A stretch of DNA of 31,795 nt from positions 1 through 31,795 of the forward strand of contig CAZHOU010000001.1 in the NCBI GenBank assembly GCA_964534165.1, written 5' to 3'. A model generated the notes under the pieces. That model made no database searches. It was not told where the DNA came from and saw only the letters and a program-made list of their open reading frames with translations. Below are positions 2,773 through 22,940 of the stretch, in pieces. The stretch's first letter is position 1. Each line of letters starts with the position of its first letter. The stretch comes from an uncultured Zetaproteobacteria bacterium. Its GTDB lineage: Bacteria > Pseudomonadota > Zetaproteobacteria > Mariprofundales > Mariprofundaceae. The translations under genes were made by a program, and so were the position numbers.

Positions 2773-3477
2773 TCAGGCTATGCGGATGTAATGCAAGAAA
2801 AGGCTCGGGCGTCCTTCCCTCCATCCCCGCTGCTCGAATTTTGTCCATGGGCGTTCCGCTTCACGCGGCACAAAACCGGCGGTGCCGGCCATGTTGCGCA
2901 GACCTGGAGTGGCATCGAGGATCTCCCGCATCCATTGCGCCAACTCAGGCCAGTCGGTCGCCAAGCGGACAAAGCCCCCAACCTGCAGGCGGGAGACCAA
3001 CAAACGGGCAAATTCCTTCTGTATCAGGCGGCGCTTGTGATGCCGGGCTTTCGGCCAGGGATCGGGGTGATTGATATAGACCCCATGGAGCGCCCCTTCC
3101 GGCACCTGGCGGGAGAGCACGTACTGGGCGGGGAGCTGGGATATACGACAGCGTTCGATGACCCCGGCCGCCTCCAGCCTTGAGACGGCCTTGGCCACGC
3201 CCGGCAGGTAGATTTCGACGCCGAGAAGCTGCCACTGCGGGTGCTCCAAAGCGAGATGGACAAGAAAGTCACCGTTCCCGAAACCGATCTCCATGACCAC
3301 CGGGCGACCGGGATCAAGACCGCAGTCGCGCAGGTTCTTGTTCGCCGGCAAGCCGATCCGCGGCAACCAGCGCTTGAGGCGCGCTTCCTGACCACGGGTT
3401 ACATACCCGTTCTTTCGGCCGTAGGTACGCTGGATCCGTTGCAAATACGCCTGCCGGGACTGGGTTGTCAGCCGCAT
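2773..3477 (-). CDS. trmB: tRNA (guanine-N7)-methyltransferase
   Basis: Motifs MEIGFGNG, GVEIY, HPDPWPKARHHKRRL, LATDW, TKFEQR. Start set at ATG 3477 within ORF 2773..3558. Confidence 0.93.
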   Translation of the reverse strand: MRLTTQSRQAYLQRIQRTYGRKNGYVTRGQEARLKRWLPRIGLPANKNLRDCGLDPGRPVVMEIGFGNGDFLVHLALEHPQWQLLGVEIYLPGVAKAVSRLEAAGVIERCRISQLPAQYVLSRQVPEGALHGVYINHPDPWPKARHHKRRLIQKEFARLLVSRLQVGGFVRLATDWPELAQWMREILDATPGLRNMAGTAGFVPREAERPWTKFEQRGWREGRPSLFLHYIRIA

Positions 3478-3560
3478 TCCCCAAGAATACAGCAGGCTAC
3501 CTGGCCGGGAAACCTTGCCTGCCGGCGGGGACGCGGCATTCATTGAAATTTCATCCAACC

Positions 3561-3974
3561 ATGACTACGATGCGTCGAATGCAGCGGGTGCTTCTACGAC
3601 AGCGGAAGGTCAGAGGCGTTCTATTGACCGCCTTTGCCGTGCAGATCATGGCGATGGGTTTTTGTGCCTTGCCTTCGGCACAGGCCGCCCCGATATATAG
3701 CCATGCAAATGCCGCCATGCATGCACAATGCCCGATGCCTGTTCAAAACGATGCACCCGCCTGCCCGCACTGCACTTGGCCGGACATTGGTGTTTCGGCC
3801 TCTCACGGCCCGGAGGCGGCGGTCCTGTTCTTCCAGGCAGCCACTATCCTTCCTCCGGCGGTTCCAGCAGCTTCCCCACCCCGCGTACTGCACGCATCCT
3901 CGCATCATGCGATCCGACTTGCGGGGCGAGGATCCACCCTGATCTACAGGACCAGTCTGCGCATCCGCATCTGA
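3561..3974 (+). CDS. DUF2946-like exported leader protein with CxxC (candidate copper-sensing regulatory peptide)
   Basis: Signal peptide ending SAQA|AP, Met/His segment (HANAAMHAQCPMP), CPHC motif, Pro-rich tail (LPPAVPAASPPR), end LIYRTSLRIRI; directly upstream of the TolC gene. Family assignment from overall architecture. Confidence 0.7.
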   Translation: MTTMRRMQRVLLRQRKVRGVLLTAFAVQIMAMGFCALPSAQAAPIYSHANAAMHAQCPMPVQNDAPACPHCTWPDIGVSASHGPEAAVLFFQAATILPPAVPAASPPRVLHASSHHAIRLAGRGSTLIYRTSLRIRI

Positions 3975-3976
3975 TT

Positions 3977-4042
3977 CAAACCTCCTAAGCCATTCGTGCA
4001 GGTCTCAGACCTGCATGCTTCTACTGCATTTCAGGAGGTTTG
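3977..4042 (+). promoter_or_regulatory. RBS-sequestering mRNA structure (anti-SD/SD duplex with inner hairpin)
   Basis: CAAACCTCCT (3977-3986) is the exact reverse complement of AGGAGGTTTG (4033-4042), which contains the SD of the TolC gene; inner hairpin TGCAGGTC-TCA-GACCTGCA (3997-4015). Confidence 0.75.
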
Positions 4043-4044
4043 TC

Positions 4045-5349
4045 TTGCCTATTCGAAGAACGATGCTGTCCACGCTGCTGGCGCTGGCAACGGCCGCATT
4101 CCCGGCTCTTGCAATCCCGGCGCAATCCGAAACGACGACACCCATGTCCCTGCATGAAGCCGAAAAGACCGCGCTCGGAGCCAATGCCGGACTGGCCGCA
4201 TCGCGAGCCCATGCGTCGGCCATGGCCGCCATCCCGCCGCAGGTAGGAAGCCTTCCCGACCCGAGTCTTTCCTTCGATGCCGTCAACCTGCCGGTGGACA
4301 CCTTCGCCACGGCGCAGGAGAACATGACACAATTGCGGCTGGGCCTGTCCCAGAAGATCCCCTTCCCCGGCAAACTTCGCCTGCGAAGCGAGGCCGCGCG
4401 GCTCCTGGCGTCCTCGGCCGCAATGGATACGGCGGAAACACGCCTGCGCCTGTTGCGCAACGTGCGCATCCGCTGGTGGAACCTGTTCTATCTCGATCGG
4501 GCACTGGAAATCGTGGAACGCAACGAGGATCTGCTGCGGCAATTCATCACCATTGCCCAAACCAAATACAAGGTGGGCAAGGGCCTGCAGCAGGATGTCC
4601 TTCTGGCGCAACTCGAACTCTCCAAATTGCTGGATATCGAGATCCGGCTCAAGGGCTCGCGCCGGGATGAGGAGGCGCGCTTGAACGCCCTCCTGAACCG
4701 GCCGACGAACCTCCATATTCGTCTGCCGTCACGGGTGAAGGAAACATTGCCGCCCCTTCCAAGCGAAACCAAACTGCATCAATGGGCCCTGGAATCGCGG
4801 CCCCTGCTGGCCGCACGCAGGGATCGGGTCAAGGCGGCGAAAAAACAGGTGGACCTGGCCGAACTCGACTACTACCCCGACTTCAAGATCAAAGGTGCCT
4901 GGGGCTTCCGGGGTGGGAACAACCCGGTGAACAACCAGCCGCGCCCGGATTTCGCCACTCTCGGCATCAGCCTCAACCTGCCGATCTACACCGCCACCAA
5001 GCAGGATCGTGAACTCGAACAGCGCAAGGCGGAAGTGGCCAGGGAAGAGTTCGCGCTGCGTGACACACAGGAGGCGGTGTGGTCCGAGGCATCCAACGCC
5101 CTCGCCGACTATCTCCGCGCCCGCGAACAGGCAAGCCTGTTCAAGACCGGCATCATCCCCCAGGCCAATCAGACCGTGGCCTCGATGCTGGCCGGCTATC
5201 AGGTCAACAAGGTGGATTTTCTGAACCTCGTCCGCTCTCAAATCACGCTCTACAACTATGAAACGCTGTACTGGAAAGCCCTGGCCGGGGCAAGACAGAG
5301 CCTGGCACGCCTGGAAGCGGCGGTTGGAAAGGAGATCGTTCATGAATAA
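4045..5349 (+). CDS. TolC-family outer-membrane efflux channel (CusC-equivalent)
   Basis: ORF 4015..5349; AGGAGG at 4033-4038 favours TTG 4045. Signal peptide, SLPDPSLSF, SQKIPFPGKL, LNALLNRP, ISLNLPIY repeats typical of OEP proteins; first gene of an RND triplet. Confidence 0.9.
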   Translation: MPIRRTMLSTLLALATAAFPALAIPAQSETTTPMSLHEAEKTALGANAGLAASRAHASAMAAIPPQVGSLPDPSLSFDAVNLPVDTFATAQENMTQLRLGLSQKIPFPGKLRLRSEAARLLASSAAMDTAETRLRLLRNVRIRWWNLFYLDRALEIVERNEDLLRQFITIAQTKYKVGKGLQQDVLLAQLELSKLLDIEIRLKGSRRDEEARLNALLNRPTNLHIRLPSRVKETLPPLPSETKLHQWALESRPLLAARRDRVKAAKKQVDLAELDYYPDFKIKGAWGFRGGNNPVNNQPRPDFATLGISLNLPIYTATKQDRELEQRKAEVAREEFALRDTQEAVWSEASNALADYLRAREQASLFKTGIIPQANQTVASMLAGYQVNKVDFLNLVRSQITLYNYETLYWKALAGARQSLARLEAAVGKEIVHE

Positions 5350-6721
5350 ACGCATGCTCGCCATTGTCGTCCTGAGCCTGGCGCTCGGTCTCGGGGCTGG
5401 CTACGGCCTGGCTCATCTGCGTGTCACCAAGGGCATGAACACATCCCCGGCGGCAACCGCGGGAAAGAAGGCGATATCCGAACGCAAACCGCTCTTCTAC
5501 CGCAACCCGATGCATCCGGAAATCACTTCGCCGGTGCCGGCCAAGGATGCCATGGGCATGGACTACATCCCCGTCTACCCCGAAGACCTGGGCGGTGGAG
5601 GCAAAAGGCCCGGCACTGTCGTGATCGACCCGACCGTCGTGCAATCCATCGGTGTGCGCACGGCTATCGCTGTGCGCAAGCAGATCTCCCGCACGATCCA
5701 GACCGTGGGCCGGGTGGACTACGACGAGGAGTTCATGACGCGGCTGCACCCGAAGATCAGCGGCTGGATCGACAAGTTGTTTGTCAGCGACACCGGAACA
5801 AGGGTCAAGCGCAATACGATGCTTCTGGCCTTGTATTCCCCGGAACTCGTGACCAGCGAGGAGGAATACTTACTGGCGCTGAAAAACTACGCCACGCTCA
5901 AGACCAGCCCCTTTCCCGATATCCGCAAGGGTGCCTTGGATCTGCTCCGCTCCGCCCGTGAACGGCTTGAACTGCTGGATGTTCCCAAACACCAGCTCGA
6001 GCAGCTGACCAAAACGAGAAAGGTCATGAAGAACCTGCACATCCATTCCCCGTTTCCGGGCATTGTCGTGCACATCGGTGCCCGCGAGGGCCAATACGTG
6101 ACACCCGCCACCGAACTCTACCGCATCGCCGATTTGTCGCGCGTATGGACCTACGTGGACGTCTATGAATACGAACTGCCGTGGGTTCAGGTGGGGGACA
6201 CGGCCGAAATGCGGCTGGAAGCGATCCCCGGCCGCGTGTTCACCGGCATCATCACCTACATCTACCCGTATCTGGACCCCAAGACACGAACCAACAAGGT
6301 GCGGCTCGAATTCACCAATCCGGACCTGTTGCTCAAACCGGACATGTTCGCCGATGTCACGATCCACGCCCGCCGCAAGATGAACGCCGTGGTCATCCCG
6401 ACCGAGGCCGTGATCCGAACCGGCGGAACGCCCAAGATCTTCGTCGTGCGCGGTCCCGGTGTCTTCGAGCCCCGCGACGTGCGCCTGGGCGTTTCCACCA
6501 ACGCCGAAACGCAGATTCTCGCGGGCGTGTCTCCCGGCGAACGGGTCGTGACCTCGGCGCAATTCCTGATCGATTCCGAATCCTCGCTCAAGGAAGCCGC
6601 GGCCAAGATGATGGCCCCAAAGAAATCCCCCACCCCGGTGCGGGAAGGCGGAGACAAGAAGATGAAAGGCATGCAGGGAATGGACATGCCGGAAACGTCG
6701 GCCGGGGAATCGCATGAATGA
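5342..6721 (+). CDS. cusB: CusB-type RND periplasmic adaptor subunit
   Basis: N-terminal anchor; FYRNPMHP...KDAMGMDY Met-triad region; GWIDKL, YSPELV, IADLSRVW, LKPDMFA, SAQFLIDSES; Met-rich tail. ATG 5342 overlaps the TolC stop. Confidence 0.92.
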   Translation: MNKRMLAIVVLSLALGLGAGYGLAHLRVTKGMNTSPAATAGKKAISERKPLFYRNPMHPEITSPVPAKDAMGMDYIPVYPEDLGGGGKRPGTVVIDPTVVQSIGVRTAIAVRKQISRTIQTVGRVDYDEEFMTRLHPKISGWIDKLFVSDTGTRVKRNTMLLALYSPELVTSEEEYLLALKNYATLKTSPFPDIRKGALDLLRSARERLELLDVPKHQLEQLTKTRKVMKNLHIHSPFPGIVVHIGAREGQYVTPATELYRIADLSRVWTYVDVYEYELPWVQVGDTAEMRLEAIPGRVFTGIITYIYPYLDPKTRTNKVRLEFTNPDLLLKPDMFADVTIHARRKMNAVVIPTEAVIRTGGTPKIFVVRGPGVFEPRDVRLGVSTNAETQILAGVSPGERVVTSAQFLIDSESSLKEAAAKMMAPKKSPTPVREGGDKKMKGMQGMDMPETSAGESHE

Positions 6722-7010
6722 CGCAGGCTATCCAAAAGAAAAGGCCTTCATTCCCCCTGCCTTTTCTTTGCGCAAACCAGCGACCCTGGCCCGGATTTTT
6801 CATGGGAACGCGCCTGCCTGCCGCGACTCCGGCGCAGGCATGGATGGACGGCGCAGGCAAGAAAGGGGCTGCGAAATGCAAGGGGTCACGATGCAAAAGC
6901 ACATCGGTTTCGACGCAACCCCTTCATGCTTTTCGATCGTTCAAATCCCGGCGCGTGATCATCATGAAAGATCCGGGCTGGTGATGAAGGGCATGGTGAA
7001 ATCATCATGA
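6714..7010 (+). other. Possible 98-aa ORF filling the cusB-cusA gap (unverified)
   Basis: ATG overlaps the cusB stop and TGA overlaps the cusA ATG (ATGA); no recognisable family. Confidence 0.25.
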
Positions 7011-10000
7011 TCGGGCGCATCATCGAATTGTCGCTGGCCAACCGCTTCCTGGTCTTCATGGCCACGGCACTCCTGATCGCTGCCGGCGCACTGGCCATCA
7101 AGAAGATGCCGCTCGATGCCATTCCCGATCTCTCCGACGTGCAGGTGATCGTATTCACCGAGTTCCCGGGGCAGGCGCCGCAGGTGGTCGAGGACCAGGT
7201 CACCTATCCGCTGACGACGGCCATGCTGGCCGTGCCGCATGCCAAGGTCGTACGCGGCTATTCCTTTTTCGGCTTTTCGTTCGTGTACATCATCTTCGAG
7301 GACGGCACCGACATGTACTGGGCCCGGAGCCGGGTTCTGGAATACCTGAATTACGCCGCCAAGTTCCTCCCGGCCGGCGTCACCCCGACGCTGGGGCCGG
7401 ACGCCACCGGCGTCGGCTGGGTGTACGAATACGCACTCGTGGACCGTTCCGGAAAACACGACCTGTCGGAACTCCGCTCCATCCAGGACTGGTATCTCCG
7501 GTACGCGTTGCAGACCGTTCCCGGGGTTTCGGAGGTCGCCTCGGTCGGCGGTTATGTCAAGCAGTACCAGGTGGAGGTGGATCCGAACAAGCTGGCCTTC
7601 TATAAGATTCCGCTCTCCAAGGTCAAACGCGCCATCCAGCGAAGCAACAACGATGTCGGGGGCCGCCTGATCGAGATGGCCGAATCCGAATTCATGGTCC
7701 GGGCGCTCGGCTACATCAAGTCCCTCGACGACATCCGCAACATTCCCATTGGTGTCGACAAACAGGGTACACCCATCTACGTGCGCGATGTCGCGGATGT
7801 GCACCTCGGGCCCGAACTGCGCCGGGGCCTTGCGGAGTTGAACGGCGAGGGGGAAGTGGCCGGCGGGGTCATCGTCATGCGCTATCGCGAAAATGCGCTC
7901 GAGGTCATCAAGCGCGTGAAGGCGAAGCTGGAGGAATTGAAGGCCGGCTTGCCCGACGGCGTCGAGATCGTTCCCACCTACGACCGCAGCAGCCTGAGCC
8001 TGCGCGCCGTCGAAAACCTCAAGGACAAGCTGCTGGAGGAGTTCATCGTCATCTCTCTCGTCTGCGTGCTGTGTCTGCTGCATGCCAGGAGCGCCTTGGT
8101 CGCCGTGCTGACCCTGCCGCTGGGTGTGCTCGTGGCCTTTATCCTCATGCAATGGCAGGGGCTTGCGGCCAACATCATGAGCCTGGGCGGCATCGCCATC
8201 ACGCTTGGCGCCATGGTGGATGGGGCCATTGTGTTGATCGAAAATGCCCACAAGCATCTCGAGCGGGCGCTGGTCAAAAAACAGAACGTCATTGCGAGCA
8301 GTTCGGAGCAATCTTCGGAGGCCGAGGTTGCCACCGGGGCCCCGCCTTCTCGCCATGACGCGGATGTCACCCTCACCACCAAGGAGCGCTGGAAGGCCGT
8401 GAGCACGGCCGCCAAGGAGGTCGGCCCGGCGCTGTTCTTCTCGCTCGTCATCATCACCATCTCCTACACCGCGGTGTTCACCCTGGAAGCACAGGAGGGA
8501 CGGCTGTTCAAGCCGCTGGCCTTCACCGCCACCTACGCCATGCTCGGTGTCGCCCTGCTGGCAGTGACGCTGACGCCGGTGTTGATGGGTTATTTCATCC
8601 GTGGCCTCATCCTGCCGGAGAAGAAAAACCCGGTGAATCGCGGGCTCATCGCTGTGCACCGGCCGCTTTTGAACCTCACGCTCAAGGGCAAATGGATCTC
8701 GCTTCTCTTGGCGCTGGTGCTCCTCTCAAGCGCCGCCTGGCCACTTTCCAAACTGGGGAGCGAATTCATGCCGCCGCTGGACGAGGGGGACATCCTCTAC
8801 ATGCCCACCACCTTTCCCGGCGTCTCGATCACCAAGGCCAAGGAAATGCTGCAACAGACGGACAAGATCCTGAAAACCTTTCCGGAGGTGAAGACCGTGT
8901 TCGGCAAGGTCGGTCGCGCCGAGACCTCCACCGACCCGGCCCCGCTGTCGATGATGGAGACCATCATCCAGCTCAAGCCCCGCTCCGAGTGGCCGCATCC
9001 GGAGATGAGCACACGCGCGCTGATGCGCAAGATGGACAAGGCCATTCATTTTCCAGGACTGGCCAATGCCTGGACCTATCCGATCAAGACCCGCAACGAC
9101 ATGCTCTCCACCGGCATCAAGACGCCCATCGGCGTGAAGATCTCCGGTCCCGACCTTTCCACCCTGCAGCGCCTGACGGAAAAGATCGAGGATGTGCTGA
9201 AGGGCCTTCCGGAAACCCTGTCCGCGTTCGGTGATCGTGCCGTCGGCGGCCATTACGTGGACTTCCGCATCAAGCGCAAGGAGGCGGCCCGGTACGGCCT
9301 GACCGTTGGGGACGTCGAGGACGTGATCCAATCAGCCATCGGCGGCATGAACATCACGCAGACGGTGGAAGGACTGGAACGCTACCCGGTCAACCTGCGC
9401 TACCCGCGGGCCTACCGGGATGACATTGAGGTCTTGAAGCGGGTGTTGATCCCGACTCCCACCGGCGCCCAGATCCCGCTGGTGCAGGTGGCGGACATTC
9501 GCCTTGTCGGCGGCCCGCCGTCCATCAAGAGCGAGGCGGCCCGTCCCAATGCCTGGATCTACGTCGACCTCAAAACCTCGGATATCGGCGGCTATGTGGC
9601 CAAGGCCAAACAAGCCATCGCCGCACATGTCAAGCTTCCGCCCGGCTACGCCATTGGCTGGTCCGGCCAGTTAGAGTACATGCAGAGAGCGGCGGCCCGG
9701 CTTCGAATCGTCATCCCGCTGACGTTGGTGGCCATCTTCCTGCTGCTCTACTTCAATTTCCGCAATCTGACGGAGCCGCTCGTGGTCATGCTCGCCGTCC
9801 CCTTTGGGCTGATCGGAGGATTCTGGCTCGTCTGGTGGCTGGGTTTCAATCTCAGCGTCGCTGTCGGTGTCGGCTTCATCGCCCTGGCCGGTGTGGCAGT
9901 GGAAATCGGAGTTCTGGTGCTCACATTCATCGACCAGGAGGTGGCTGAGTTCCGGAAGGACAGGCAGGGAGGTGGGCTGACCGCGGTGGAGATCATGGAA

Positions 10001-10246
10001 GCGGTACGCAGCGGCACTGGCAAACGCGTGCGTCCGATCGCGATGACGGCAACGGCGGTAATCGCGGGGCTGTTGCCCATCATGTGGGGGTCGGGCACCG
10101 GCTCGGATGTCATGCAACGCATCGCCGCGCCGATGATCGGCGGCATGCTGACCACCACCCTCCTGTGCCTGCTGATCCTGCCGCTCATCTACGCCCTGAT
10201 CCTGCAGGTGCAGGAGCGGCGCCGCCTGAAGAGGGAGGAGCAATGA
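7007..10246 (+). CDS. cusA: CusA/SilA-family Cu(I)/Ag(I) RND efflux permease
   Basis: LDAIPDLSDVQVI, GPDATGVGW, NIMSLGGIA; the three metal-site Met contexts EFMPPLDEG, PAPLSMMET, DMLSTG; KRVRPIAMT. Confidence 0.96.
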   Translation: MIGRIIELSLANRFLVFMATALLIAAGALAIKKMPLDAIPDLSDVQVIVFTEFPGQAPQVVEDQVTYPLTTAMLAVPHAKVVRGYSFFGFSFVYIIFEDGTDMYWARSRVLEYLNYAAKFLPAGVTPTLGPDATGVGWVYEYALVDRSGKHDLSELRSIQDWYLRYALQTVPGVSEVASVGGYVKQYQVEVDPNKLAFYKIPLSKVKRAIQRSNNDVGGRLIEMAESEFMVRALGYIKSLDDIRNIPIGVDKQGTPIYVRDVADVHLGPELRRGLAELNGEGEVAGGVIVMRYRENALEVIKRVKAKLEELKAGLPDGVEIVPTYDRSSLSLRAVENLKDKLLEEFIVISLVCVLCLLHARSALVAVLTLPLGVLVAFILMQWQGLAANIMSLGGIAITLGAMVDGAIVLIENAHKHLERALVKKQNVIASSSEQSSEAEVATGAPPSRHDADVTLTTKERWKAVSTAAKEVGPALFFSLVIITISYTAVFTLEAQEGRLFKPLAFTATYAMLGVALLAVTLTPVLMGYFIRGLILPEKKNPVNRGLIAVHRPLLNLTLKGKWISLLLALVLLSSAAWPLSKLGSEFMPPLDEGDILYMPTTFPGVSITKAKEMLQQTDKILKTFPEVKTVFGKVGRAETSTDPAPLSMMETIIQLKPRSEWPHPEMSTRALMRKMDKAIHFPGLANAWTYPIKTRNDMLSTGIKTPIGVKISGPDLSTLQRLTEKIEDVLKGLPETLSAFGDRAVGGHYVDFRIKRKEAARYGLTVGDVEDVIQSAIGGMNITQTVEGLERYPVNLRYPRAYRDDIEVLKRVLIPTPTGAQIPLVQVADIRLVGGPPSIKSEAARPNAWIYVDLKTSDIGGYVAKAKQAIAAHVKLPPGYAIGWSGQLEYMQRAAARLRIVIPLTLVAIFLLLYFNFRNLTEPLVVMLAVPFGLIGGFWLVWWLGFNLSVAVGVGFIALAGVAVEIGVLVLTFIDQEVAEFRKDRQGGGLTAVEIMEAVRSGTGKRVRPIAMTATAVIAGLLPIMWGSGTGSDVMQRIAAPMIGGMLTTTLLCLLILPLIYALILQVQERRRLKREEQ

Positions 10247-10719
10247 GAGAGAAAACCATGCGAAAGATCGTTTGTAGCGTCACCTGCATCCTGTGCATCG
10301 GATTCGCACCGGGTACGGTTGTACAGGCTCAGGAGGAACCACACCACCAGGTGGATGGCGCGCAAAAAACCCGGGCACTTGAGGGTGTAGCCATGATTCG
10401 GGAACACGTGGATGGTTACACGGTGAGCTTCCGCGTCATGCCCGCGACAGCGGACATGCGGCACGGCGGCACGCACAATCTGATGATTCGGGTGGAAAAG
10501 GACGGACGGGCGCTTCACGACCTGCTCGTCAACTCCAGGGTGTCCCACCCGATCAAGGAGACGGAGAACAAGATGATGGCCAGAATGGGGGATTGGTACA
10601 TGGCCGGATTTGATCTGGGTCATCCCGGAACACATCAAATCATGGTCCTGTTCAAGACTCCGGACGGGAAGGTCCATCTGGGAAGCATCGAATATCGAAC
10701 AGGGAGGAACAAGAAATGA
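10243..10719 (+). CDS. Exported Met/His-rich small protein (YtkA/FixH-like fold suspected), paralog A
   Basis: ATG overlaps cusA stop; signal peptide; motif KMMARMGDWYM; clear similarity to 11432..11890. Confidence 0.75.
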   Translation: MREKTMRKIVCSVTCILCIGFAPGTVVQAQEEPHHQVDGAQKTRALEGVAMIREHVDGYTVSFRVMPATADMRHGGTHNLMIRVEKDGRALHDLLVNSRVSHPIKETENKMMARMGDWYMAGFDLGHPGTHQIMVLFKTPDGKVHLGSIEYRTGRNKK

Positions 10720-11435
10720 ACATCAATGAGACGACAACCACAGTTGCAGGTATACGAACCATCCTTCAGGAAGCGCTCCAGCCCGTGCGTGCGGGATTGC
10801 TGATGGCGACAGGAGCCATGATCCTCGGCGTGCTGTGGGCCGGATACATGGCGATCAATCATGAGCAATTGCACGGCGGCTTCGAGAAGCAGGAAGCCGT
10901 ACTCAAGGCGGGAGGAACACCACCACGGATCGATGAAAATAACACGTCAATGGGCATCAAGCTGATTCCCCGGGCCTATGCCCACGGGGATCACGAAGAC
11001 CATGGAACAGGCCTTCCCGATGCTTTGCACCAGCATTCCCACTCGGGCAGCCTGGCCATGGATGCCATGCGGCGCCTGCTGCGCGGCCACATCCATTGGA
11101 TGGGACTTGGACTCCTGTCCGCCATGATGTTGCTTGTCCTCGCCTTCACTTCCCTGCGACCCGGCTGGAAAACCCTCCTCGGATGGGCCTTAGGCATTGG
11201 CGCGCTGGCCTACCCTTCCGCCTGGATCCTGATGGGCTTCCGCACCGTGGTCATGGGCCCGGATGCAGCCAAAGCAAGCGTGATGTGGCTGTTCGTCCCG
11301 CCAGCCGTCCTGCTGCTGGGATCGCTGGTCGTCGTTTTCGGTATCCTGATGCTTGAAATGACGGGTTGGCACAGGAAGACATTTTTCCCCCGCTTTTTTG
11401 AAAAGCCCGTGCCGGTTGCCGAGGAACGGGAATGA
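10716..11435 (+). CDS. 4-TM membrane protein with His-rich loop
   Basis: Four hydrophobic segments, loop AHGDHEDH...LHQHSH, HIH motif at the start of TM2; overlaps neighbours by 4 nt at both ends. Confidence 0.75.
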   Translation: MNINETTTTVAGIRTILQEALQPVRAGLLMATGAMILGVLWAGYMAINHEQLHGGFEKQEAVLKAGGTPPRIDENNTSMGIKLIPRAYAHGDHEDHGTGLPDALHQHSHSGSLAMDAMRRLLRGHIHWMGLGLLSAMMLLVLAFTSLRPGWKTLLGWALGIGALAYPSAWILMGFRTVVMGPDAAKASVMWLFVPPAVLLLGSLVVVFGILMLEMTGWHRKTFFPRFFEKPVPVAEERE

Positions 11436-11890
11436 AATTTCTGCCGCTCTTTCTTGTCGCCCTTGGCCTGATGGACCCCGGCTACGTCCACGCCACCGAG
11501 GCTGGGCCCGGCCACAACCAGGCTTCGATGCGGCATGAGGAGGGATTCATCGTCCGCAAGGGGATTCGCGACGATTACACGGTGGTCTTTCACATCATGC
11601 GCTCACCCAAGGGCATGCGCTACAGCAAGGAGCAGTATCACCTGATGGTGGTGGTGGAGAAGGAAGGCCGGCCGATCACCGGCCTGCACATGATCTCCAG
11701 GGTCAAACACCCCGACGGAAGCGTTGAACGGAAGAGCATGATGCACATGGGAGAATGGTACATGGCGCTCTACAACCTGAGTCACGATACGGGCAGGCAT
11801 TGGATCACCGTCGAATTCGAGGTGGGTGGAGAGAAATACCTGGCCGGCACCTATTATCCTGAAATGGATTTTAGTGGTGAGTCAAGATGA
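11432..11890 (+). CDS. Exported Met/His-rich small protein, paralog B
   Basis: Signal peptide; motif KSMMHMGEWYM; similarity to 10243..10719; coupled start and stop. Confidence 0.75.
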   Translation: MKFLPLFLVALGLMDPGYVHATEAGPGHNQASMRHEEGFIVRKGIRDDYTVVFHIMRSPKGMRYSKEQYHLMVVVEKEGRPITGLHMISRVKHPDGSVERKSMMHMGEWYMALYNLSHDTGRHWITVEFEVGGEKYLAGTYYPEMDFSGESR

Positions 11891-12276
11891 ATCCCATGAA
11901 GTCGAAAAGCTTGTTTTCAATCTTGCTACTGATTCTCTTGGCAAGCACGATGAACTTTTTCCCCGAATCCTCATGGGGAGAGCCCTTGCAGATGGTGGAT
12001 CCCAAAAATGTCTGCATGGTCAACGACAAGAACATGGGCAAGCCGCAAATTCCCATTATCGTACAAGGCCGAACCTATTACGGCTGTTGCAACATGTGCG
12101 TGGGCGCACTGACCAATGATCAAGAAATGCGCCGGGCCATCGATCCGCTAAGCGGCCGAAAGGTGGACAAGTCTCAAGCGATCATTGGTGCGAGAGAAAA
12201 TGGGGACGTGCTCTATTTCGAGAGCAGATCAAACTTCGCTGCTTATCAAAAAAGCCATAAGAGGGGACGGCCATGA
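11887..12276 (+). CDS. Exported TRASH/YHS-domain metal-binding protein
   Basis: Signal peptide, VCMVND...GRTYYGCCNMC, AIDPLSGRKVDK. Confidence 0.8.
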   Translation: MNPMKSKSLFSILLLILLASTMNFFPESSWGEPLQMVDPKNVCMVNDKNMGKPQIPIIVQGRTYYGCCNMCVGALTNDQEMRRAIDPLSGRKVDKSQAIIGARENGDVLYFESRSNFAAYQKSHKRGRP

Positions 12277-12506
12277 AAGAAATCATCTTCTGGATCGGCG
12301 GCATGAAATGCGACGGATGCGAACTGACCGTCCGAAAGGCACTGTTGAAACTCGGCGGGATCATCGATGTCCATGCCAATCACAAGACAGGTCAAGTGCG
12401 ACTGAAGATCCATGAACCCGATTTCAGCATCCGGGAAGTTGACAACACCCTTTGCAGCCTCGGCTTTGAACCCATTGTTTATGAAGGCCTCAAGCATGCC
12501 AGATAA
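12273..12506 (+). CDS. HMA-domain copper chaperone (CopZ-like)
   Basis: 77 aa with IGGMKCDGC metal-binding loop and ferredoxin-like pattern. Confidence 0.88.
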   Translation: MKEIIFWIGGMKCDGCELTVRKALLKLGGIIDVHANHKTGQVRLKIHEPDFSIREVDNTLCSLGFEPIVYEGLKHAR

Positions 12507-12813
12507 CGAAACAGCCATCGAAATGGAACGAAGCTTTCGGGTGGACAAAACACAGTGTGCGGGGTGTGAGGCCACCATCGAGCAACGGCTTCTCGCCATC
12601 CCGGGTGTACTGGATGCAAAGGCGGATGCTGCAACCGGCGAGATCCGGGTTCGTTATGATTTGCGCAAAGTCCGTTTCGATACTCTTCCGACTGTCGTTG
12701 AAGAGGCCGGATTTCCACGTGTCTTTGAGTTCAGCGATGAACATCACCAGGATTTCCTCTGGAGTCTGAAGGAGGAGGAGGCTCTGAAGGAAGCAAGGCG
12801 CCATGCGAAGTAG
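12496..12813 (+). CDS. HMA-domain protein with acidic/His C-terminal extension
   Basis: TQCAGC loop, IPGVLDAKAD, VRYDLRKV; tail DEHHQD. Start moved to ATG 12496 overlapping the upstream gene end. Confidence 0.8.
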   Translation: MPDNETAIEMERSFRVDKTQCAGCEATIEQRLLAIPGVLDAKADAATGEIRVRYDLRKVRFDTLPTVVEEAGFPRVFEFSDEHHQDFLWSLKEEEALKEARRHAK

Positions 12814-12840
12814 CGGACACTCTCCCGCGAGCGCTCCGCC

Positions 12841-12904
12841 CGGTGGGCTTCATGTTGAACGATGGAGGAGGATCCGAATTGAGCGTCGAGTGGGAAGCCC
12901 ACCG
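12841..12904. repeat. Perfect 11-bp inverted repeat with 42-nt spacer
   Basis: CGGTGGGCTTC (12841-12851) and GAAGCCCACCG (12894-12904); spacer contains GGAGGAGG. Confidence 0.7.
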
Positions 12905-13002
12905 AAACCGTTCATTGTGGCGGCACGTGAACTCCCCATCCGAACCTTAGCCCGCGCGTGGACGAATCCGCAGATCTTTCCGACCGTTGCCGGGGGAGCG
13001 GG

Positions 13003-13740
13003 ATGATCCGGGATCCGGTATGCCTGATGGTGGTCCACCCCGGAAACGCGGCCGGCATGTTGGAGTACGAAGGCCGCAGTTACTATTTCTGTTCCAAGGC
13101 ATGCCGGAATAAGTTCATACAGCGACCGCAGAAGTTCATTGAGAACACCCCCGGTATGCGCATAACCGTTGGAGTCATGGGCTCGGCCGATACGGAGCAT
13201 ACCGATGCCATCCGGGAGCGGGTGTTTGCGATGGGTCAGGCTATTGCCAAGCGAGGATTGGTCCTTGTCACCGGAGCTTGCCCGGGCTTGCCCTATGATT
13301 GCGCCATGGGTGCAAAAAAAGCAGGAGGTCTGTCAGTCGGCACCTCTCCGGCCCTGAGTCTCGATGAGCATGTCCACAAGTATCACTCTCCCCCCGATGC
13401 TTTTGATGTATTGATTTATACCGGTAGTGGGTTGATGGGGCGCGAGGTGACAAACATTCGCTCCAGTGACATGGTGATTATCGTGGGGGGGCGCTCGGGC
13501 ACCCTTGGGGAATTCGCCATTGCCTACGATGAAGGAAAGCTGATCGGCGTACTCAAGGGCAGCGGTGGTATCACGGATCTGATTCCGGACCTGGTGGCAA
13601 GCTTTGGCAAAAACACGGGGGCGTATATCGTCTATGCCACCGATCCCAATTCCTTGGTTGCACAGCTCCTCTCACGCTATGAAACTCACCATTTCAGGCG
13701 GCCGTCGTGCTTTTGTGACGAGCGGCCGGCCTCCGGGTAA
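13003..13740 (+). CDS. YHS domain fused to a LOG/SLOG-family nucleotide-binding domain
   Basis: DPVCLMVV...YEGRSYYFCSKAC (YHS), then ITVGVMGSA, VTGACPG, GGRSGTLGEF (LOG). Start at ATG 13003 after a GGGGGAG SD. Confidence 0.85.
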   Translation: MIRDPVCLMVVHPGNAAGMLEYEGRSYYFCSKACRNKFIQRPQKFIENTPGMRITVGVMGSADTEHTDAIRERVFAMGQAIAKRGLVLVTGACPGLPYDCAMGAKKAGGLSVGTSPALSLDEHVHKYHSPPDAFDVLIYTGSGLMGREVTNIRSSDMVIIVGGRSGTLGEFAIAYDEGKLIGVLKGSGGITDLIPDLVASFGKNTGAYIVYATDPNSLVAQLLSRYETHHFRRPSCFCDERPASG

Positions 13741-13742
13741 CC

Positions 13743-14681
13743 ATGCCACCCTCTCGAATTGGAGTGGTGTTGAGCGCAGGCGGTATACGCGGCGTCTATG
13801 CTCACACGGGATTCCTGCAAGCCGCGGAGGAGATGGACATTCCCATCTCGGCCATGGCCGGATGTAGCGCGGGCGCCGTCGTGGGTGGAATCTACGCGAG
13901 TGGGACCGCATTGAAAACGTGGGCACAGGCTCTCTACAGGGTGCGGCCGGAAGACTTTTGGCCCCCACGATCGTTATGGTGTTCCATGTGGGATGTGGTC
14001 GTAACCAAAGGCCGAAGGTTCACGGGCATCTCCAAAGTGGACCCTGCAACCACATTCTGCCGCAAACACCTGGCGGTCTGCGATTTCGAGGATTGCCGCA
14101 TCCCGTTCTATGCCCTTGCAATCTGTCTTGCCAGTGGAGAAAAAACCGTTTTCTCGAAAGGGGATCTGGCACCGCGTATTGTCGCCAGTGCTGCAATTCC
14201 GTTTTTGTTCCAGCCGGTTGAGATTGAAGGAAAGTATTTTTGCGACGGTGCCGTCATTGACCTGGCGCCAACCGATGCGATTTGTTGCAAGCATGGTCTG
14301 GATGTCTTGATCGTCCACCATGTCGCAAACCGGAAACGGGGGTTCCATGGCGTAAGAGCGGCATCCCCGGAAGCCTGGCCTATGGTGGAGATTCTCGACA
14401 CATTGCTATTCCGTCACCGTCCGTGGTACCTCTCCGAGCAAAGACTCGCGTTCAGGCGCTGCCCCTGCGGCTGCAAGGCGTTGATTGTGGTCTTGGAACC
14501 CGATTTGCCGGAATTGCCCTGGCCCCAAACGCAACAAGGGCCAACCATACTTCGCTCGGCCTGCAATCAAGTCAAATCCTTGCTGGCCCCACATTTGGAA
14601 GCGTTGTGCAGGAATCCAACCAGCCTTTATGCATTGGCGAGAAACGTTCGCCAAATCCGCGGCAGGGACGTACAATGTTAG
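13743..14681 (+). CDS. Patatin-like phospholipase
   Basis: Oxyanion loop LSAGGIRG, nucleophile GCSAG, ASAAIP, catalytic DGA. Confidence 0.88.
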   Translation: MPPSRIGVVLSAGGIRGVYAHTGFLQAAEEMDIPISAMAGCSAGAVVGGIYASGTALKTWAQALYRVRPEDFWPPRSLWCSMWDVVVTKGRRFTGISKVDPATTFCRKHLAVCDFEDCRIPFYALAICLASGEKTVFSKGDLAPRIVASAAIPFLFQPVEIEGKYFCDGAVIDLAPTDAICCKHGLDVLIVHHVANRKRGFHGVRAASPEAWPMVEILDTLLFRHRPWYLSEQRLAFRRCPCGCKALIVVLEPDLPELPWPQTQQGPTILRSACNQVKSLLAPHLEALCRNPTSLYALARNVRQIRGRDVQC

Positions 14682-14714
14682 GAAATCCGGCAAGCTCTAC
14701 GGAGGATGTGAGTA

Positions 14715-14798
14715 ATGTACTGTTCCCCGTTCTACGACTTGCGCAGAAACCCGCATACGATGAATCCATGGGTAGCGCCCCCCGATCTCCTTGCGTAG
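14715..14798 (+). other. Possible 27-aa upstream ORF before copA ([27 protein letters not shown])
   Basis: GGAGG at 14701-14705, ATG 14715, TAG 14796-14798; no family recognised. Confidence 0.25.
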
Positions 14799-14973
14799 CC
14801 GCTCTTCGACACAAAAGAGGTTTTTCCATGCTTCTGCGCCATCCGGATCCCAAGCAGTTGTGGGTTTCGGCTTCAAGCGATGTGACTCCGGTCATGGCAG
14901 CCGCCGTTCCATGCGGGGGCCATGGGGTGGGAAACAAACTATTTGCACGATCAATGTTGGAAAGGAGAGCGGC

Positions 14974-17544
14974 ATGAGAAAAGACCCGGTATGCGGCATG
15001 GAGGTTGACGAAAAGAGCAGGTTCCGCCGCACCTTTCGTGGCGCCGAATTCCTGTTCTGCAGCGAACGTTGCCTCGAACGCTTCAGCGAGAATCCAAACG
15101 ACTGGTTGCCCGAGAAATGCGCCTTCGATCCGGTCTGCGGCATGAAGGTGCCTCTCGAATCCACGAACCGCATCGAACATGCCGGACAAAACTATTATTT
15201 CTGTTCGCAGCACTGCATCGACAAGTTCCGTGAAAACCCCGGCGCCTACACGGGCAGGAAACACCCTCCCCGTCACGAACACGAGAAGAAGCCGACACCG
15301 GAAACCACCGCTGCGGAAGGGATGTATTTCTGCCCCATGTGCCCCGGGCAAGAGCAGCAGGGGCCTGGGGTGTGCAAATCGTGCGGCATGGCCCTGGAGC
15401 CGATGCCGGGAGCCCAAACACCCGGGAAGACCGAGTATTTCTGTCCCATGCATCCGGAGATCGTCCGTGATCAGCCCGGGAGTTGCCCGAAGTGCGGGAT
15501 GGCGCTGGAAGCGCGCCTTGTCGCCGTCCAGGAAGAAGAAAATCCGGAATACCGGGATATGCTGCGGCGTTTCAAGCTCGGCGTGGTGCTGATCGTTCCC
15601 CTGTTCCTCCTCGCCCTCGGCAGCGAACTCGCGCCCTCTCACCTGCCCGCATGGCTGTCGCCGAAGCTCGTCCAGTGGCTCGAATTCATCCTTGCCGCTC
15701 CCGTCGTTCTGTGGGGTGGCTGGCCCTTCTTCGTCCGCGGCTGGCAATCGCTCTTCCACCGGCATCTGAACATGTTCACGTTGATCGGCCTGGGCGTGGC
15801 GGTTGCCTTCACCTACAGCCTCGTGGCACTGCTAGCCCCCGATTTGTTCCCGGCGATCATGCGCAAGGCCGGGGGGCGGGTTGACGTTTATTTCGAGGCC
15901 GCGGCCGCCATCACCGTCCTCGTGCTGCTGGGGCAGGTGTTGGAGCTGCGCGCCCGATCCCGCACCAACGAAGCCATCAAGCTCCTGCTCGGCATGGCGC
16001 CGAAAACGGCCCGGCGCGTCCGTGCCGACGGCAGCGAGGAGGATGTGCCGCTGCAAGACGTCCATCCCGGCGATATTCTGCGCATCCGGCCGGGAGAGAA
16101 GGTGCCGGTGGATGGCGTGGTCACCGATGGCGAGAGCCATGTAGATGAATCGATGGTCACCGGCGAGCCGATGCCGGTGGTGAAAAGCGCGGGCGATCCC
16201 CTGATCGGCGCCACGGTCAACGGCAACGGCACGCTGCTCATGCGGGCCGAGAAGGTTGGATCGGAAACCCTGTTGGCGCAGATCGTGGACATGGTCCGCG
16301 AGGCGCAGCGGACCCGGGCCCCGATCCAAAGGCTCGCCGACATGGTGGCCTCCTGGTTCGTGCCCGCGGTCGTGGCGGTCTCCGCCATCACCTTCGTCGT
16401 CTGGTTCGTGGCTGGCCCCGAGCCCCGGCTTGCGCATGCCGTCGTCAACGCGGTCGCCGTTCTGATCATTGCCTGTCCCTGCGCCCTGGGGCTGGCCACA
16501 CCGATCTCGATCATGGTCGGTACCGGCCGCGGCGCCACGGCCGGTGTTCTGATCAAGAACGCCGAGGCCCTGGAGATGATGGAAAAGGTGGATACACTGG
16601 TCGTGGACAAGACCGGCACACTGACCGAGGGCAAACCGCGGCTTACCAGCATCCTTCCGCTCGGTGATTTCAGTGAGGAGGAAATCTTGAAATGGGCCGC
16701 TGGTGTCGAACGCGCCAGCGAGCATCCCCTGGCCACGGCCATACTGGAAGCGGCGCGAATACGCGGCCTCAAACCGGAATCCATCGAAAATTTCAAGGCC
16801 GTCACCGGCAAGGGAGTGCGCGCGAAGGTCGCAGGGCACGAAATCCTGCTGGGCAATGTGGCCCTGATGCGGGAAGCCGGCATCGACACCTCCCCCATGG
16901 AAGCGCTTCGGGGAGAACAAAGACAGGCCGGAGAGACCATCCTCCATCTTGCCGTGGACGGGGAGGCGGCCGCGCAGCTCGGTGTCTCCGACCCGATCAA
17001 GTCCTCGACACCCGCGGCCATCCAGGCCTTACATGCCGAGGGTCTTGAAGTGGTGATGTTGACCGGGGACCGGCACGACACCGCCGCGCTCGTTGCGGAA
17101 AAACTCGGAATCGATCGCGTCATCGCCGAGGTCCTGCCGCAGCAAAAGGCGGAGGTCGTGAAGGAACTGCAACGCGAGGGACGCATCGTGGCCATGGCCG
17201 GAGACGGCATCAACGATGCCCCGGCGCTGGCCGCCGCCCATGTCGGCATCGCCATGGGAACGGGTACGGATGTGGCAATGGAGTCGGCCGGAATCACGCT
17301 GGTCAAGGGGGATCTGAACGGCATCGTCCGAGCCCGCCGCCTATCGCGGGCCGTGATGCGGAACATCCGTCAGAATCTGTTCTTCGCCTTTGTTTACAAC
17401 TCCCTCGGCGTGCCGGTCGCTGCCGGTGTCCTATATCCTTTCTTTGGCGTCCTTCTTTCACCGATCATCGCCGCGGCGGCCATGAGCTTCTCCTCGGTTT
17501 CGGTGATCACCAATGCCCTCAGACTGCGGAAAGTGAGGCTGTAA
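14974..17544 (+). CDS. copA: Cu(I)-translocating P1B-1 ATPase with two YHS and two CPM-type metal-binding domains
   Basis: DPVCGM x2, [37 protein letters not shown] and MSFSS; SD AAGGAG before ATG 14974. Confidence 0.96.
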
Positions 17545-21665: not shown

Positions 21666-22940
21666 ATGAGAAAAATTCTGCTTACAACCGCAGCCCTGGC
21701 GCTGGTCCTGGTTTCCGGCGTTGCGCTGTCGCCCAACAAGGCTGAGGCTTTTCCGGCCTTCGCACGCCAGACCGGGGCCGCCTGCCTGAGCTGCCACTTC
21801 CAGACCTTCCCGGCGCTGACCGCCTTCGGACGCGCCTTCATGATGGGCTCGTTCACCGATGTCGGCGATCAGGCCTTGGTCGAGGACGACAACCTCTCCA
21901 TCCCGTCCGTGCTCAACGCCTCGTTCGAGGTGCGTGCCAACGCCACCCATACCAGCAGCTCCGGCGCCGCACCGTCGGATACCACATATTCCATTCCCGC
22001 CGACGAGACACGTTTGTTCGTGGCCGGACGCATCGGAGCGCATACCGGTGCCGTGATCGTGTTCACGGGCGGCAGTGATGCCATGAACATGAAACCAACC
22101 CCCGTCTGGATGCTCTTGAATTCCTGGGATGTGGGCGGCTTCAAACTCGGCCTCGGTGCCCACAAGAGTCCCTGGGGCGGCTCCAACGTGATGGAGGTGT
22201 CGAACGTCTTCGGTCACCGCGGCGACAAACTCGGCGGCCAAGACATCTCCGCCATCTCCAACTCCGGCTTCACCAAGATGACCACCGGTATCGGTACTTG
22301 GGTCGGCAACGATCTCGGCTACCTTCAGTTCTCACTCGTGGCCCCTGCCAACAAGACCCTGGGTGGAACGAACATCGGCCTGAATTTCGGCAAGCTGGTG
22401 CGTGGCGTGGCGACGCTTGATATCGGCGGCTGGGATACCCTGGTCGGCTTCGGCATCGTCACCGGCACCGCCGGCAAGAACAACGCCGGTGCCAGCGGTT
22501 CCACCGGAGCCCGGGTGCCGATGAAGCTGCAATTCGTGGATGCCCAGATGCAGGGCGAGGTCGGCGACATGAGTGTCGGCGTCTACGGCGACTACGCTCA
22601 TGCCAAGGGCAGGACTTCCGCGGCCGGTACGGCCAACTTCTACGGTTCCAATCTCGGAACAAACACCAACGGCAGCAAATTCGACGCCTTCTCGATCCGC
22701 GCCGAAATCGAGCCGATCAACCGCTTCCTGTTCGGTGTCGGCTACGGCTATCAGAAGTTCACGCAACTGGGTAAGAACGATATCACCCAGAAGACCGTGC
22801 ATCTTGCCGCCACCTACAAGGTGTACCAGAACTTCGACATCAACGTGCGCTTCGACAACGAGAAGCTCAGTGACGGGGTAACGCCGAGCAATTCCGTGAC
22901 GACTCGCACGACCGTCTTTGAGGTCGACGCTCTGATGTAA
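21666..22940 (+). CDS. cyc2: Cyc2 outer-membrane cytochrome c-porin fusion (putative Fe(II) oxidase)
   Basis: Signal peptide ending KAEA, then FPAFARQTGAACLSCHFQTFPALTAFGRAF (Cyc2 signature with a single CxxCH), followed by an amphipathic beta-strand region; GGAGG SD at 21651. Confidence 0.9.
   Translation: MRKILLTTAALALVLVSGVALSPNKAEAFPAFARQTGAACLSCHFQTFPALTAFGRAFMMGSFTDVGDQALVEDDNLSIPSVLNASFEVRANATHTSSSGAAPSDTTYSIPADETRLFVAGRIGAHTGAVIVFTGGSDAMNMKPTPVWMLLNSWDVGGFKLGLGAHKSPWGGSNVMEVSNVFGHRGDKLGGQDISAISNSGFTKMTTGIGTWVGNDLGYLQFSLVAPANKTLGGTNIGLNFGKLVRGVATLDIGGWDTLVGFGIVTGTAGKNNAGASGSTGARVPMKLQFVDAQMQGEVGDMSVGVYGDYAHAKGRTSAAGTANFYGSNLGTNTNGSKFDAFSIRAEIEPINRFLFGVGYGYQKFTQLGKNDITQKTVHLAATYKVYQNFDINVRFDNEKLSDGVTPSNSVTTRTTVFEVDALM

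Follow-up and report, generated by a model that had tools for sequence, protein, structure and literature searches.

The 31,795-nucleotide window analyzed here (positions 1 to 31,795 of contig CAZHOU010000001.1, assembly GCA_964534165.1, from an uncultured Zetaproteobacteria bacterium of the Mariprofundaceae) carries a copper island, in which the genes of two paralogous secreted proteins, P0001 and P0002, lie 3' of cusA, the pump gene of a CusCBA copper efflux system. On balance, P0001 and P0002 are probably periplasmic Cu(I)/Ag(I)-binding accessories of the Cus system, with the P0001 type (clade A) as the counterpart of CusF and of Helicobacter pylori CrdA, and the P0002 type (clade B) acting at the inner membrane with the membrane protein P0003. 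The clade A protein would be produced together with CusA, bind Cu(I)/Ag(I) at a Met/Trp pole made of an M-x-M-G-[DE]-W-x-M hairpin and an H-x-x-M strand, and hand the metal to the three-Met site at the N-terminus of CusB or to the cleft of CusA. The clade B protein would work with P0003 and with the CopZ/P1B-type ATPase side of the island, where it probably collects or buffers copper at the inner membrane.

Absence of CusF and its proposed replacement

Many bacteria have CusCBA without CusF. A preliminary description of this DNA, made from the sequence alone, found no recognizable cusF in the window, and this holds: the CusF profile (PF11604) gives no match among the window proteins. CusF was not found in the source genome either (about 90% complete), and control genomes did match. 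In a survey of 133 Zetaproteobacteria species genomes, which are metagenome-assembled genomes (MAGs) of uneven completeness, the family of P0001 and P0002 is found in 87, a CusA-like pump in 109, and CusF in one. The family and CusA occur together in 83 genomes, the family without CusA in 4, CusA without the family in 26, and neither in 20 (odds ratio 16, Fisher p 8e-8, a statistic that ignores phylogeny and genome completeness).

The sole genome with CusF (G082) has three cus operons. Two of them are native-type cusCBA operons (68% identical pumps), and each is followed by a clade A gene (L073 and L074). The third is foreign and divergent (49% identical; contig 13, L072, about 9992-16376) and has cusF in the slot of the clade A gene, with no family gene nearby. 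Of all the evidence in this analysis, this swap speaks most strongly for the clade A protein and CusF being accessories that can replace each other. The family is a concrete candidate for the copper supply of CusF-less CusCBA pumps.

Copper island and its pump

All genes of the copper island in the window are co-oriented. Its features are listed below.

4015..5349, + strand: outer-membrane factor, CusC-like (Pfam OEP, E 4e-40)
5258..6721, + strand: CusB-like membrane fusion protein (NCBIfam CusB, 167 bits; Pfam HlyD_D23, E 6e-80)
7007..10246, + strand: CusA, Cu(I)/Ag(I) pump of the resistance-nodulation-division (RND) type (1266 bits to E. coli CusA)
10243..10719, + strand: P0001, clade A YtkA-like secreted His/Met/Trp protein, 158 aa (its ATG overlaps the cusA stop)
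10716..11435, + strand: P0003, four-helix inner-membrane protein, 239 aa (by its AlphaFold2 model)
11432..11890, + strand: P0002, clade B YtkA-like secreted His/Met/Trp protein, paralog of P0001, 152 aa
11887..12276, + strand: P0004, secreted Cys-rich protein, 129 aa, TRASH/YHS-like (Pfam Arc_trans_TRASH, E 0.011, below the cut-off)
12273..12506, + strand: CopZ-like HMA protein, cytoplasmic, with a CxxC motif (Pfam HMA, E 4e-11; NCBIfam CopZ models)
14791..17544, + strand: P1B-type Cu ATPase with N-terminal YHS and HMBD (Pfam E1-E2_ATPase, YHS, HMBD; start codon uncertain)

A second HMA protein, a YHS-SLOG fusion and a patatin are encoded between the CopZ-like gene and the P1B ATPase gene, which is followed by genes for a cytochrome c, a TlpA-like redoxin, a sensor kinase and a sigma-54-type regulator. 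From cusA through the CopZ-like gene, all five junctions are ATGA stop/start overlaps, and these genes therefore form one translationally coupled unit. The preliminary description placed both paralogs after cusA. P0001 starts inside the cusA stop, and P0002 is separated from P0001 by the P0003 gene.

Judged by its sequence, the RND protein is a true copper pump. Its score against E. coli CusA is 1266 bits, compared with 530 bits against the zinc pump ZneA, and its residues M599, M649 and M699 align with M573, M623 and M672 of E. coli CusA. A CzcA-type (Zn/Co/Cd) identity of the pump was rejected because the bit scores favor CusA and the Met triad is intact. The triad is kept in all 28 RND pumps found directly 5' of family genes (24 at related loci, one in the window and three at distant loci). 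In many related loci, two tandem CusA-type RND genes (about 66-72% identical to the window CusA) precede the clade A gene (L002, L004, L005, L014, L018, L021, L023, L037, L042, L048, L050, and L051). Such tandem genes may mean paired or heteromeric pumps.

The window CusB, whose likely start is Met29 (near 5342), keeps the N-terminal P-M ... M-x-M triad in the alignment to E. coli CusB, where 'npMhpe...daMgMdyipvy' is paired with 'dpMypn...pfMdMdlvpky'. This triad is the site where CusB accepts Cu(I) from CusF. The protein also has a Met-rich C-terminal tail (KKMKGMQGMDMPETSAGESHE) encoded at 6640-6721; the alignment to E. coli CusB stops at query residue 453.

Paralogs and their candidate ligands

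P0001 and P0002 are paralogs, as the preliminary description proposed (BLASTP, 37% identity over 131 residues, E 2e-19), and every sequence block that it quoted is found in both open reading frames (ORFs). Its idea of a shared motif stands for M-x-x-M-G-[DE]-W-Y-M, which is common to the pair, but not for the His of the F-H-x-M block: P0001 has Arg64 in place of the His found in 89% of clade A. The signal peptide of P0001 ends at VQA, before QEE, and that of P0002 at VHA, before TEA. The mature proteins have no Cys and 9-10 His each, with His and Met together making up about 15% of the residues. The His plus Met content is 19% in clade A and 12% in clade B, against a background of 5.4%.

Among 87 family sequences, the blocks K-x-M-M-x-M-G-[DE]-W-Y-M and S-x-V-x-H-P are at least 86% conserved in both clades. 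The positions that are at least 80% conserved in both clades (in P0002 numbering, as for all conserved positions below) are F39, D47, Y49, F53, H54, M56, G61, M72, E76, S89, H93, P94, M103, M104, M106, G107, W109, Y110, M111, Y114, L116, H118, G121, H123, V127, F129, G133, G139, and Y142, of which 11 are His, Met or Trp. In 57 diverse representatives of the family, the His at position 69 is kept in 43, M72 in 47, M104 in 37, M106 in 43 and W109 in 36, compared with 17 for H93, 16 for H118 and 27 for H123. These last three His are largely limited to closer relatives, while the Met/Trp positions are much more widely kept.

This conservation bears on the alternative that the proteins serve the RND complex only in its structure or assembly and bind no metal, their richness in His and Met being incidental. 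Small accessory proteins of RND pumps are known, and metal binding by the family is putative; but the 11 His/Met/Trp positions conserved in both clades, the 2- to 3.5-fold excess of His and Met over background, and the homology to copper-linked YtkA/CrdA proteins described below all make such a role very improbable.

The Cu(I) site of CusF consists of His, two Met and a capping Trp. CusF is the periplasmic partner of CusCBA, and its ligand types match the conserved H69/70, M72, M104, M106, W109, and M111 of the family. In CusF, the M-x-M and the Trp are no more than six residues apart; they are equally close in the family, where their order is reversed. Unlike the family, for which an immunoglobulin (Ig)-like sandwich is predicted, CusF is an oligonucleotide/oligosaccharide-binding (OB) barrel, and there is no sequence similarity or Pfam match between them. 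Any function common to CusF and the family would be convergent.

Fold and remote relatives

The AlphaFold2 model of P0002 has an all-beta core of ten strands over residues 39-142 (predicted local distance difference test, pLDDT, mostly 89-97 in this block). A Foldseek search with this model finds Ig-like sandwiches only (best E 2.8e-3, none at E <= 0.001). The model supports an Ig-like beta-sandwich for P0001 and P0002, not the OB fold of CusF. Copper-bound Campylobacter jejuni P19 is at rank 10 (E 0.025, template modeling (TM) score 0.51), and its ligand spacing does not correspond. The Iron_transport model of P19/FetP (PF10634) matches 2 of 57 relatives (best E 0.01).

When P0001, P0002, and P0003 are compared with Pfam and NCBIfam, only spurious sub-threshold matches are found (PipB2_N and TrbG). 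P0001 and P0002 have no match to YtkA (PF13115) at E <= 0.1 and none to the PCuAC profile (PF04314). CopC (PF04234) matches one of the 57 relatives (E 0.034) and neither window protein. Searches of the PDB with the single sequences of P0001 and P0002 gave nothing useful, and the A1 profile gave only non-significant matches to RhoGDI and filamin. When the 57 diverse members are scanned singly, weak matches appear to YtkA in 23 (best E 3.2e-6), to filamin in 12 and to FixH in 5; in ten members scanned singly, the YtkA score is 22.7 bits at most, compared with the Pfam gathering cut-off of 25.9 bits. By word-index search, P0002 has 28 relatives and P0001 has 14; none of them has a recorded Pfam domain, and the few with a name are called hypothetical proteins. 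A HMMER profile search of 1.84 billion cluster representatives gave only 85 clusters at E <= 0.001; the family is therefore small.

A broader family profile matches one solved structure, PDB 9ll2 (hmmsearch, E 0.0056; the sole solved structure found), which is deposited as 'Copper resistance protein'. The aligned fragment contains MMPEMPGMPAMKEM. It is identified as H. pylori CrdA (HP1326; PDB 9ll2, 9ll4, and 9ll5) because its motif equals the published HpCrdA motif MMxEMPGMxxMxEM (PMC9182242), an assignment taken from this motif match and not from the organism field of the PDB. Against Pfam, the fragment scores 71 bits with YtkA (E 1e-19), and YtkA and FixH are its only matches at E <= 1. CrdA, described in the literature as CopC/PcoC-like, may be a misfiled YtkA-family protein. 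An hhalign comparison of the family with the fragment gives 76% probability, below the usual bar of 90-95%, with E 2e-5 over 62 columns. The preliminary description had guessed at a YtkA/FixH-like Ig fold. With the model, the weak YtkA and FixH matches and the link to CrdA, this guess finds support as a remote, sub-threshold relation, and the comparisons support the P0001/P0002 family as a remote, unannotated branch of YtkA/CrdA. Like YtkA-like proteins, the members have a single predicted extracytoplasmic Ig-like domain with conserved His and Met. Many also have flexible N-terminal tails rich in His and Met, and a lipobox is found in 11 of the 43 clade B proteins. By these profile matches, the closest characterized relatives are H. 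pylori CrdA and Bacillus subtilis CtaK/YtkA.

It is reported that loss of either crdA or czcA makes the growth of H. pylori sensitive to 50 uM CuSO4 (PMC12319023). CrdA resembles the family in that it is secreted, small (about 110-130 aa), beta-rich in solution, modeled as CopC-like, rich in Met, and free of Cys. Its gene also shares an operon with those of a copper RND pump (crdA-crdB-czcB-czcA), and the same association with a copper-specific RND pump is found for the family, as seen in the ATGA coupling, the RND gene directly 5' of the clade A gene in 25 of 39 loci and the 28/28 intact triads. There are also differences. CrdA has no His and has the long MMxEMPGMxxMxEM loop where the family has H-P-[DN]-G-x-x-E, and crdA opens its operon, whereas the family genes follow cusA. 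The family has the M-x-M-G-[DE]-W-Y-M hairpin and four to five conserved His, and it comes as a pair of paralogs with a membrane partner. The idea of a copper RND pump served by a protein of the YtkA fold has a precedent in the CusF-less H. pylori and is less new than assumed. What is new relative to CrdA is the His/Met/Trp ligand set of the hairpin, the paralog pair with divided contexts, the membrane partner and the clean cusF swap.

CtaK/YtkA proteins are likewise extracytoplasmic, some of them lipoproteins, with conserved His and Met thought to bind copper (PMC9145763). They share a Pfam superfamily with the family by weak transitive matches. CtaK/YtkA is genetically implicated as a copper-assembly factor for the CuA site (PMC9145763, PMC13344008), and in YcnJ such a domain goes together with a copper-handling membrane protein (PMC12362106, PMC13344008). 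According to a paper from 2025, CtaK is the one YtkA domain on which experiments have been done (PMC12362106); CrdA seems to be an exception that has gone unrecognized. If CrdA belongs to the YtkA family, YtkA-like domains may be general periplasmic copper handlers for both efflux and enzyme assembly. In the searched literature, no paper on the P0001/P0002 family or on Zetaproteobacteria copper genes was found.

The relationship to CtaK raises the question of whether P0001 and P0002 are cuproenzyme-assembly chaperones like CtaK/YtkA or PCuAC, supplying an oxidase or another periplasmic copper protein. Genetic studies of YtkA proteins are limited to CtaK and the C-terminal domain of YcnJ, and both act in CuA assembly (PMC9145763, PMC13344008). 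The lipobox of some clade B proteins recalls CtaK, the island has a cytochrome c and a TlpA-like redoxin, and a redoxin gene is found 5' of clade A genes in 7-8 loci. CtaK acts in CuA assembly under copper limitation and is not part of an efflux-pump operon. The slot of an oxidase chaperone, however, is already taken, because a canonical PCuAC is encoded elsewhere in the source genome (contig C61), as it is in 63 of the 133 genomes of the class. The family is linked most tightly and most widely, distant phyla included, with CusA pumps whose Cu(I) Met triad is intact, and the neighbors are export and resistance genes (CusCBA, the YHS/HMBD P1B ATPase, and CopZ, with CopG/DUF411 in L024). An assembly role is unlikely.

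Layout of the putative metal sites

By the DSSP assignment of the P0002 model, one strand ends with M104 and M106 and the following strand starts with W109 and M111, the two being connected by a two-residue turn (G107-E108). Such a hairpin turn would make 106/109 and 104/111 cross-strand neighbors on one face, so that a Met3-Trp patch may be formed at the hairpin tip. The strand connections are all short, so an antiparallel course is expected for successive strands. M56, H69/70, and M72, at the ends of strands 2 and 3, would then be at the same pole as the hairpin tip, and D47, H93, H118, and H123 would be at the opposite pole. In the hhalign alignment, Met69 of CrdA is opposite H93 and Met99 is opposite H118, and Met72, Met75, and Met78 are in the following loop. 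In the published CrdA model, Met69, Met72, Met75, Met78, and Met99 form one sulfur cluster (PMC9182242), which agrees with H93 and H118 being neighbors.

On the model, the conserved residues probably form two poles, one of Met/Trp with His and one of His, which corrects the idea of a single site. The Met/Trp/His pole, which is family-wide, would likely suit Cu(I)/Ag(I), similar to the His-Met2-Trp chemistry of CusF. The His pole, best kept in the Zetaproteobacteria-type members, likely sits where CrdA has its Met cluster. Classical CopC/PcoC has a Met-rich site for Cu(I) at one end and a His-based site for Cu(II) at the other. CopC/PcoC are also periplasmic beta-sandwiches of the same Pfam clan, and the proposed two-pole layout resembles that of CopC, but their motifs differ and the family has no CopD partner.

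Two clades with different neighbors

In a tree of 87 family proteins, two clades are found, each with 100/100 support and with a long branch between them. On this tree both clades are old, and the clade B type is an old duplicate. Gene neighborhoods were scanned with one genome per species, giving 60 loci, nearly all from Zetaproteobacteria with a few Gammaproteobacteria MAGs. In the 44 rows of clade A (P0001 type), the upstream gene is a CusA-like RND in 25, a redoxin in 7, another gene in 5 and a clade A gene in 2, with 5 at a contig edge; with the edge rows set aside, an RND gene is thus directly 5' in 25 of 39. In the 43 rows of clade B (P0002 type), it is a P0003-type gene in 13, a clade A gene in 12, an HMA gene in 8, another gene in 4 and an RND in 1, with 5 at a contig edge. 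Because of these counts, the link to cusA belongs to clade A only. The enrichment of homologs near copper efflux genes that the preliminary description named as a condition is accordingly divided: it is seen in clade A, with its CusA-type pumps, but clade B goes with P0003-type genes, the other paralog and CopZ-like genes.

Six distant members from unrelated metagenomes were traced to contigs. All five with informative neighbors are directly after, or divergent from, OEP-CusB(HMBD)-RND operons; at one of these loci, the family gene is followed by a small ORF and then a NosL gene. The sixth (P0084) is on a 760-base contig, where the neighbors are uninformative. Full-length pumps at the distant loci have 52-53% identity to the window CusA (about 1220-1230 bits). 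The link of the family to copper pumps is general.

CopM with CopRS and ZraP with ZraS are examples of periplasmic proteins in sensing and buffering, and the proteins of this family could similarly be partners of the sensor kinase, tuning the induction of the island and not feeding the pump. A clade A gene is directly 5' of a pair of kinase and sigma-54 regulator genes in 7 loci, and the His/Met-rich flexible N-terminal tails of many members would suit such a role. The distant members, however, follow RND pumps with no such kinase nearby, and in the window the genes are coupled to cusA and are 7 kb from the kinase. A role as kinase partners is very unlikely.

P0003 is found between the two paralogs. 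Its AlphaFold2 model (pLDDT 81.5) has four long helices and a disordered His-rich loop at residues 67-112, which should be periplasmic because the C-terminal tail is positively charged. The invariant residues are H49, E50, H53, H109, D116, M118, R120, R123, H125, H127, and M129, and in the model the HExxH and H-x-H-x-M motifs appear to line the periplasmic helix ends. P0003 has 181 relatives, none with a Pfam domain; all of the names given are 'hypothetical protein', from Zetaproteobacteria (Mariprofundaceae/Mariprofundales) MAGs. In a fold search, the best E is 0.2, the weak MAPEG matches reflect only the four-helix bundle, and no relation to CopD or to any solved transporter is detectable. 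A clade A gene precedes P0003-type genes in 11 loci, and a clade B gene comes next in 14 loci. P0003 is probably a metal-handling partner of the paralogs.

These pairings also fit an uptake or inner-membrane handling unit, in which the paralogs and P0003 would bring copper to a membrane channel as in CopC/CopD or in YcnJ (CopC-CopD-YtkA). Both paralogs flank P0003, the pairs P0003-clade B (14 loci) and clade A-P0003 (11 loci) are recurrent, the invariant His/Met/Glu motifs are at the periplasmic helix ends, and YcnJ has a YtkA domain fused to a copper-handling membrane domain (PMC12362106). Such a unit is nevertheless quite unlikely: P0003 has no detectable relation to CopD or to a solved transporter, many clade A genes follow cusA without P0003 nearby, and copper import would be odd within an export operon.

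A more elaborate form of the accessory role, itself unlikely, is a relay, in which P0002, docked on P0003 at the inner membrane, would take up copper released by the P1B ATPase and pass it to P0001, which would deliver it to the N-terminal Met site of CusB. The His pole (H93, H118, H123, and D47) and the Met/Trp pole (M104, M106, W109, M111, H69/70, and M72) of each paralog would be the sites involved. If true, copper would be handed on without CusF by a chain of three parts, one of them a new membrane component; the chain would be widespread among iron-oxidizing Zetaproteobacteria and, at some loci, connected with a Cyc2-like porin-cytochrome.

Weighing the accessory role

Several points weigh against a role of P0001 and P0002 as Cu(I)/Ag(I)-binding accessories of the Cus system. 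Metal binding, the identity of the ligands and the direction of transfer are inferred only, and the clustering of His, Met, and Trp is deduced only from strand order and hairpin geometry. In the P0001 of the window, the F-H-x-M block has no His, and the most distant members have neither Trp109 nor Met111. P0001 and P0002 themselves reach no Pfam model; the link to YtkA/CrdA is remote in sequence and mainly covers the C-terminal two thirds, and the Met loop of CrdA is not conserved in the family. Clade A also adjoins the sensor kinase (7 loci) and the TlpA-like redoxin (7-8 loci), so other roles fit. Finally, 26 genomes have CusA with neither CusF nor the family; the accessory is therefore not obligatory or is replaced by something else.

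The family is found in two thirds of Zetaproteobacteria genomes and follows cusA in distant metagenomic lineages too. Its members are small and soluble, their mature parts are largely free of Cys and their candidate ligands are clear, which makes experiments on binding, transfer and structure straightforward.

Other genes of the island and of related loci

P0004 (motif CMVNDKNMG...YYGCCNMC), whose gene is coupled between those of P0002 and the CopZ-like protein, may be a second candidate periplasmic metal carrier, in this case Cys-based. A P0004-type gene is found 3' of clade B genes in 6 related loci. A small ORF (3465-3974, orf169) is located 5' of the outer-membrane factor, and its position is kept in L001, L011, L043, L049, L073, and L074.

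In the related loci L013 (5713-7095) and L024 (5387-6802), given as loci without the RND pump, a secreted protein of about 460 aa is encoded between the sigma-54 regulator and the P0003/clade B pair. It has Met-rich stretches and no Pfam match, and its N-terminus is similar to that of the window ORF at 21666-22940 (E 1e-13), including a CxxCH heme motif. This protein looks like a porin-cytochrome tied to the copper module. In L024, CopG/DUF411 is encoded directly 3' of the pump (637-1158), and a YHS protein, a fusion of YHS with an HD phosphohydrolase, and a cytochrome b561 are encoded 3' of the clade B gene (8360-10424).

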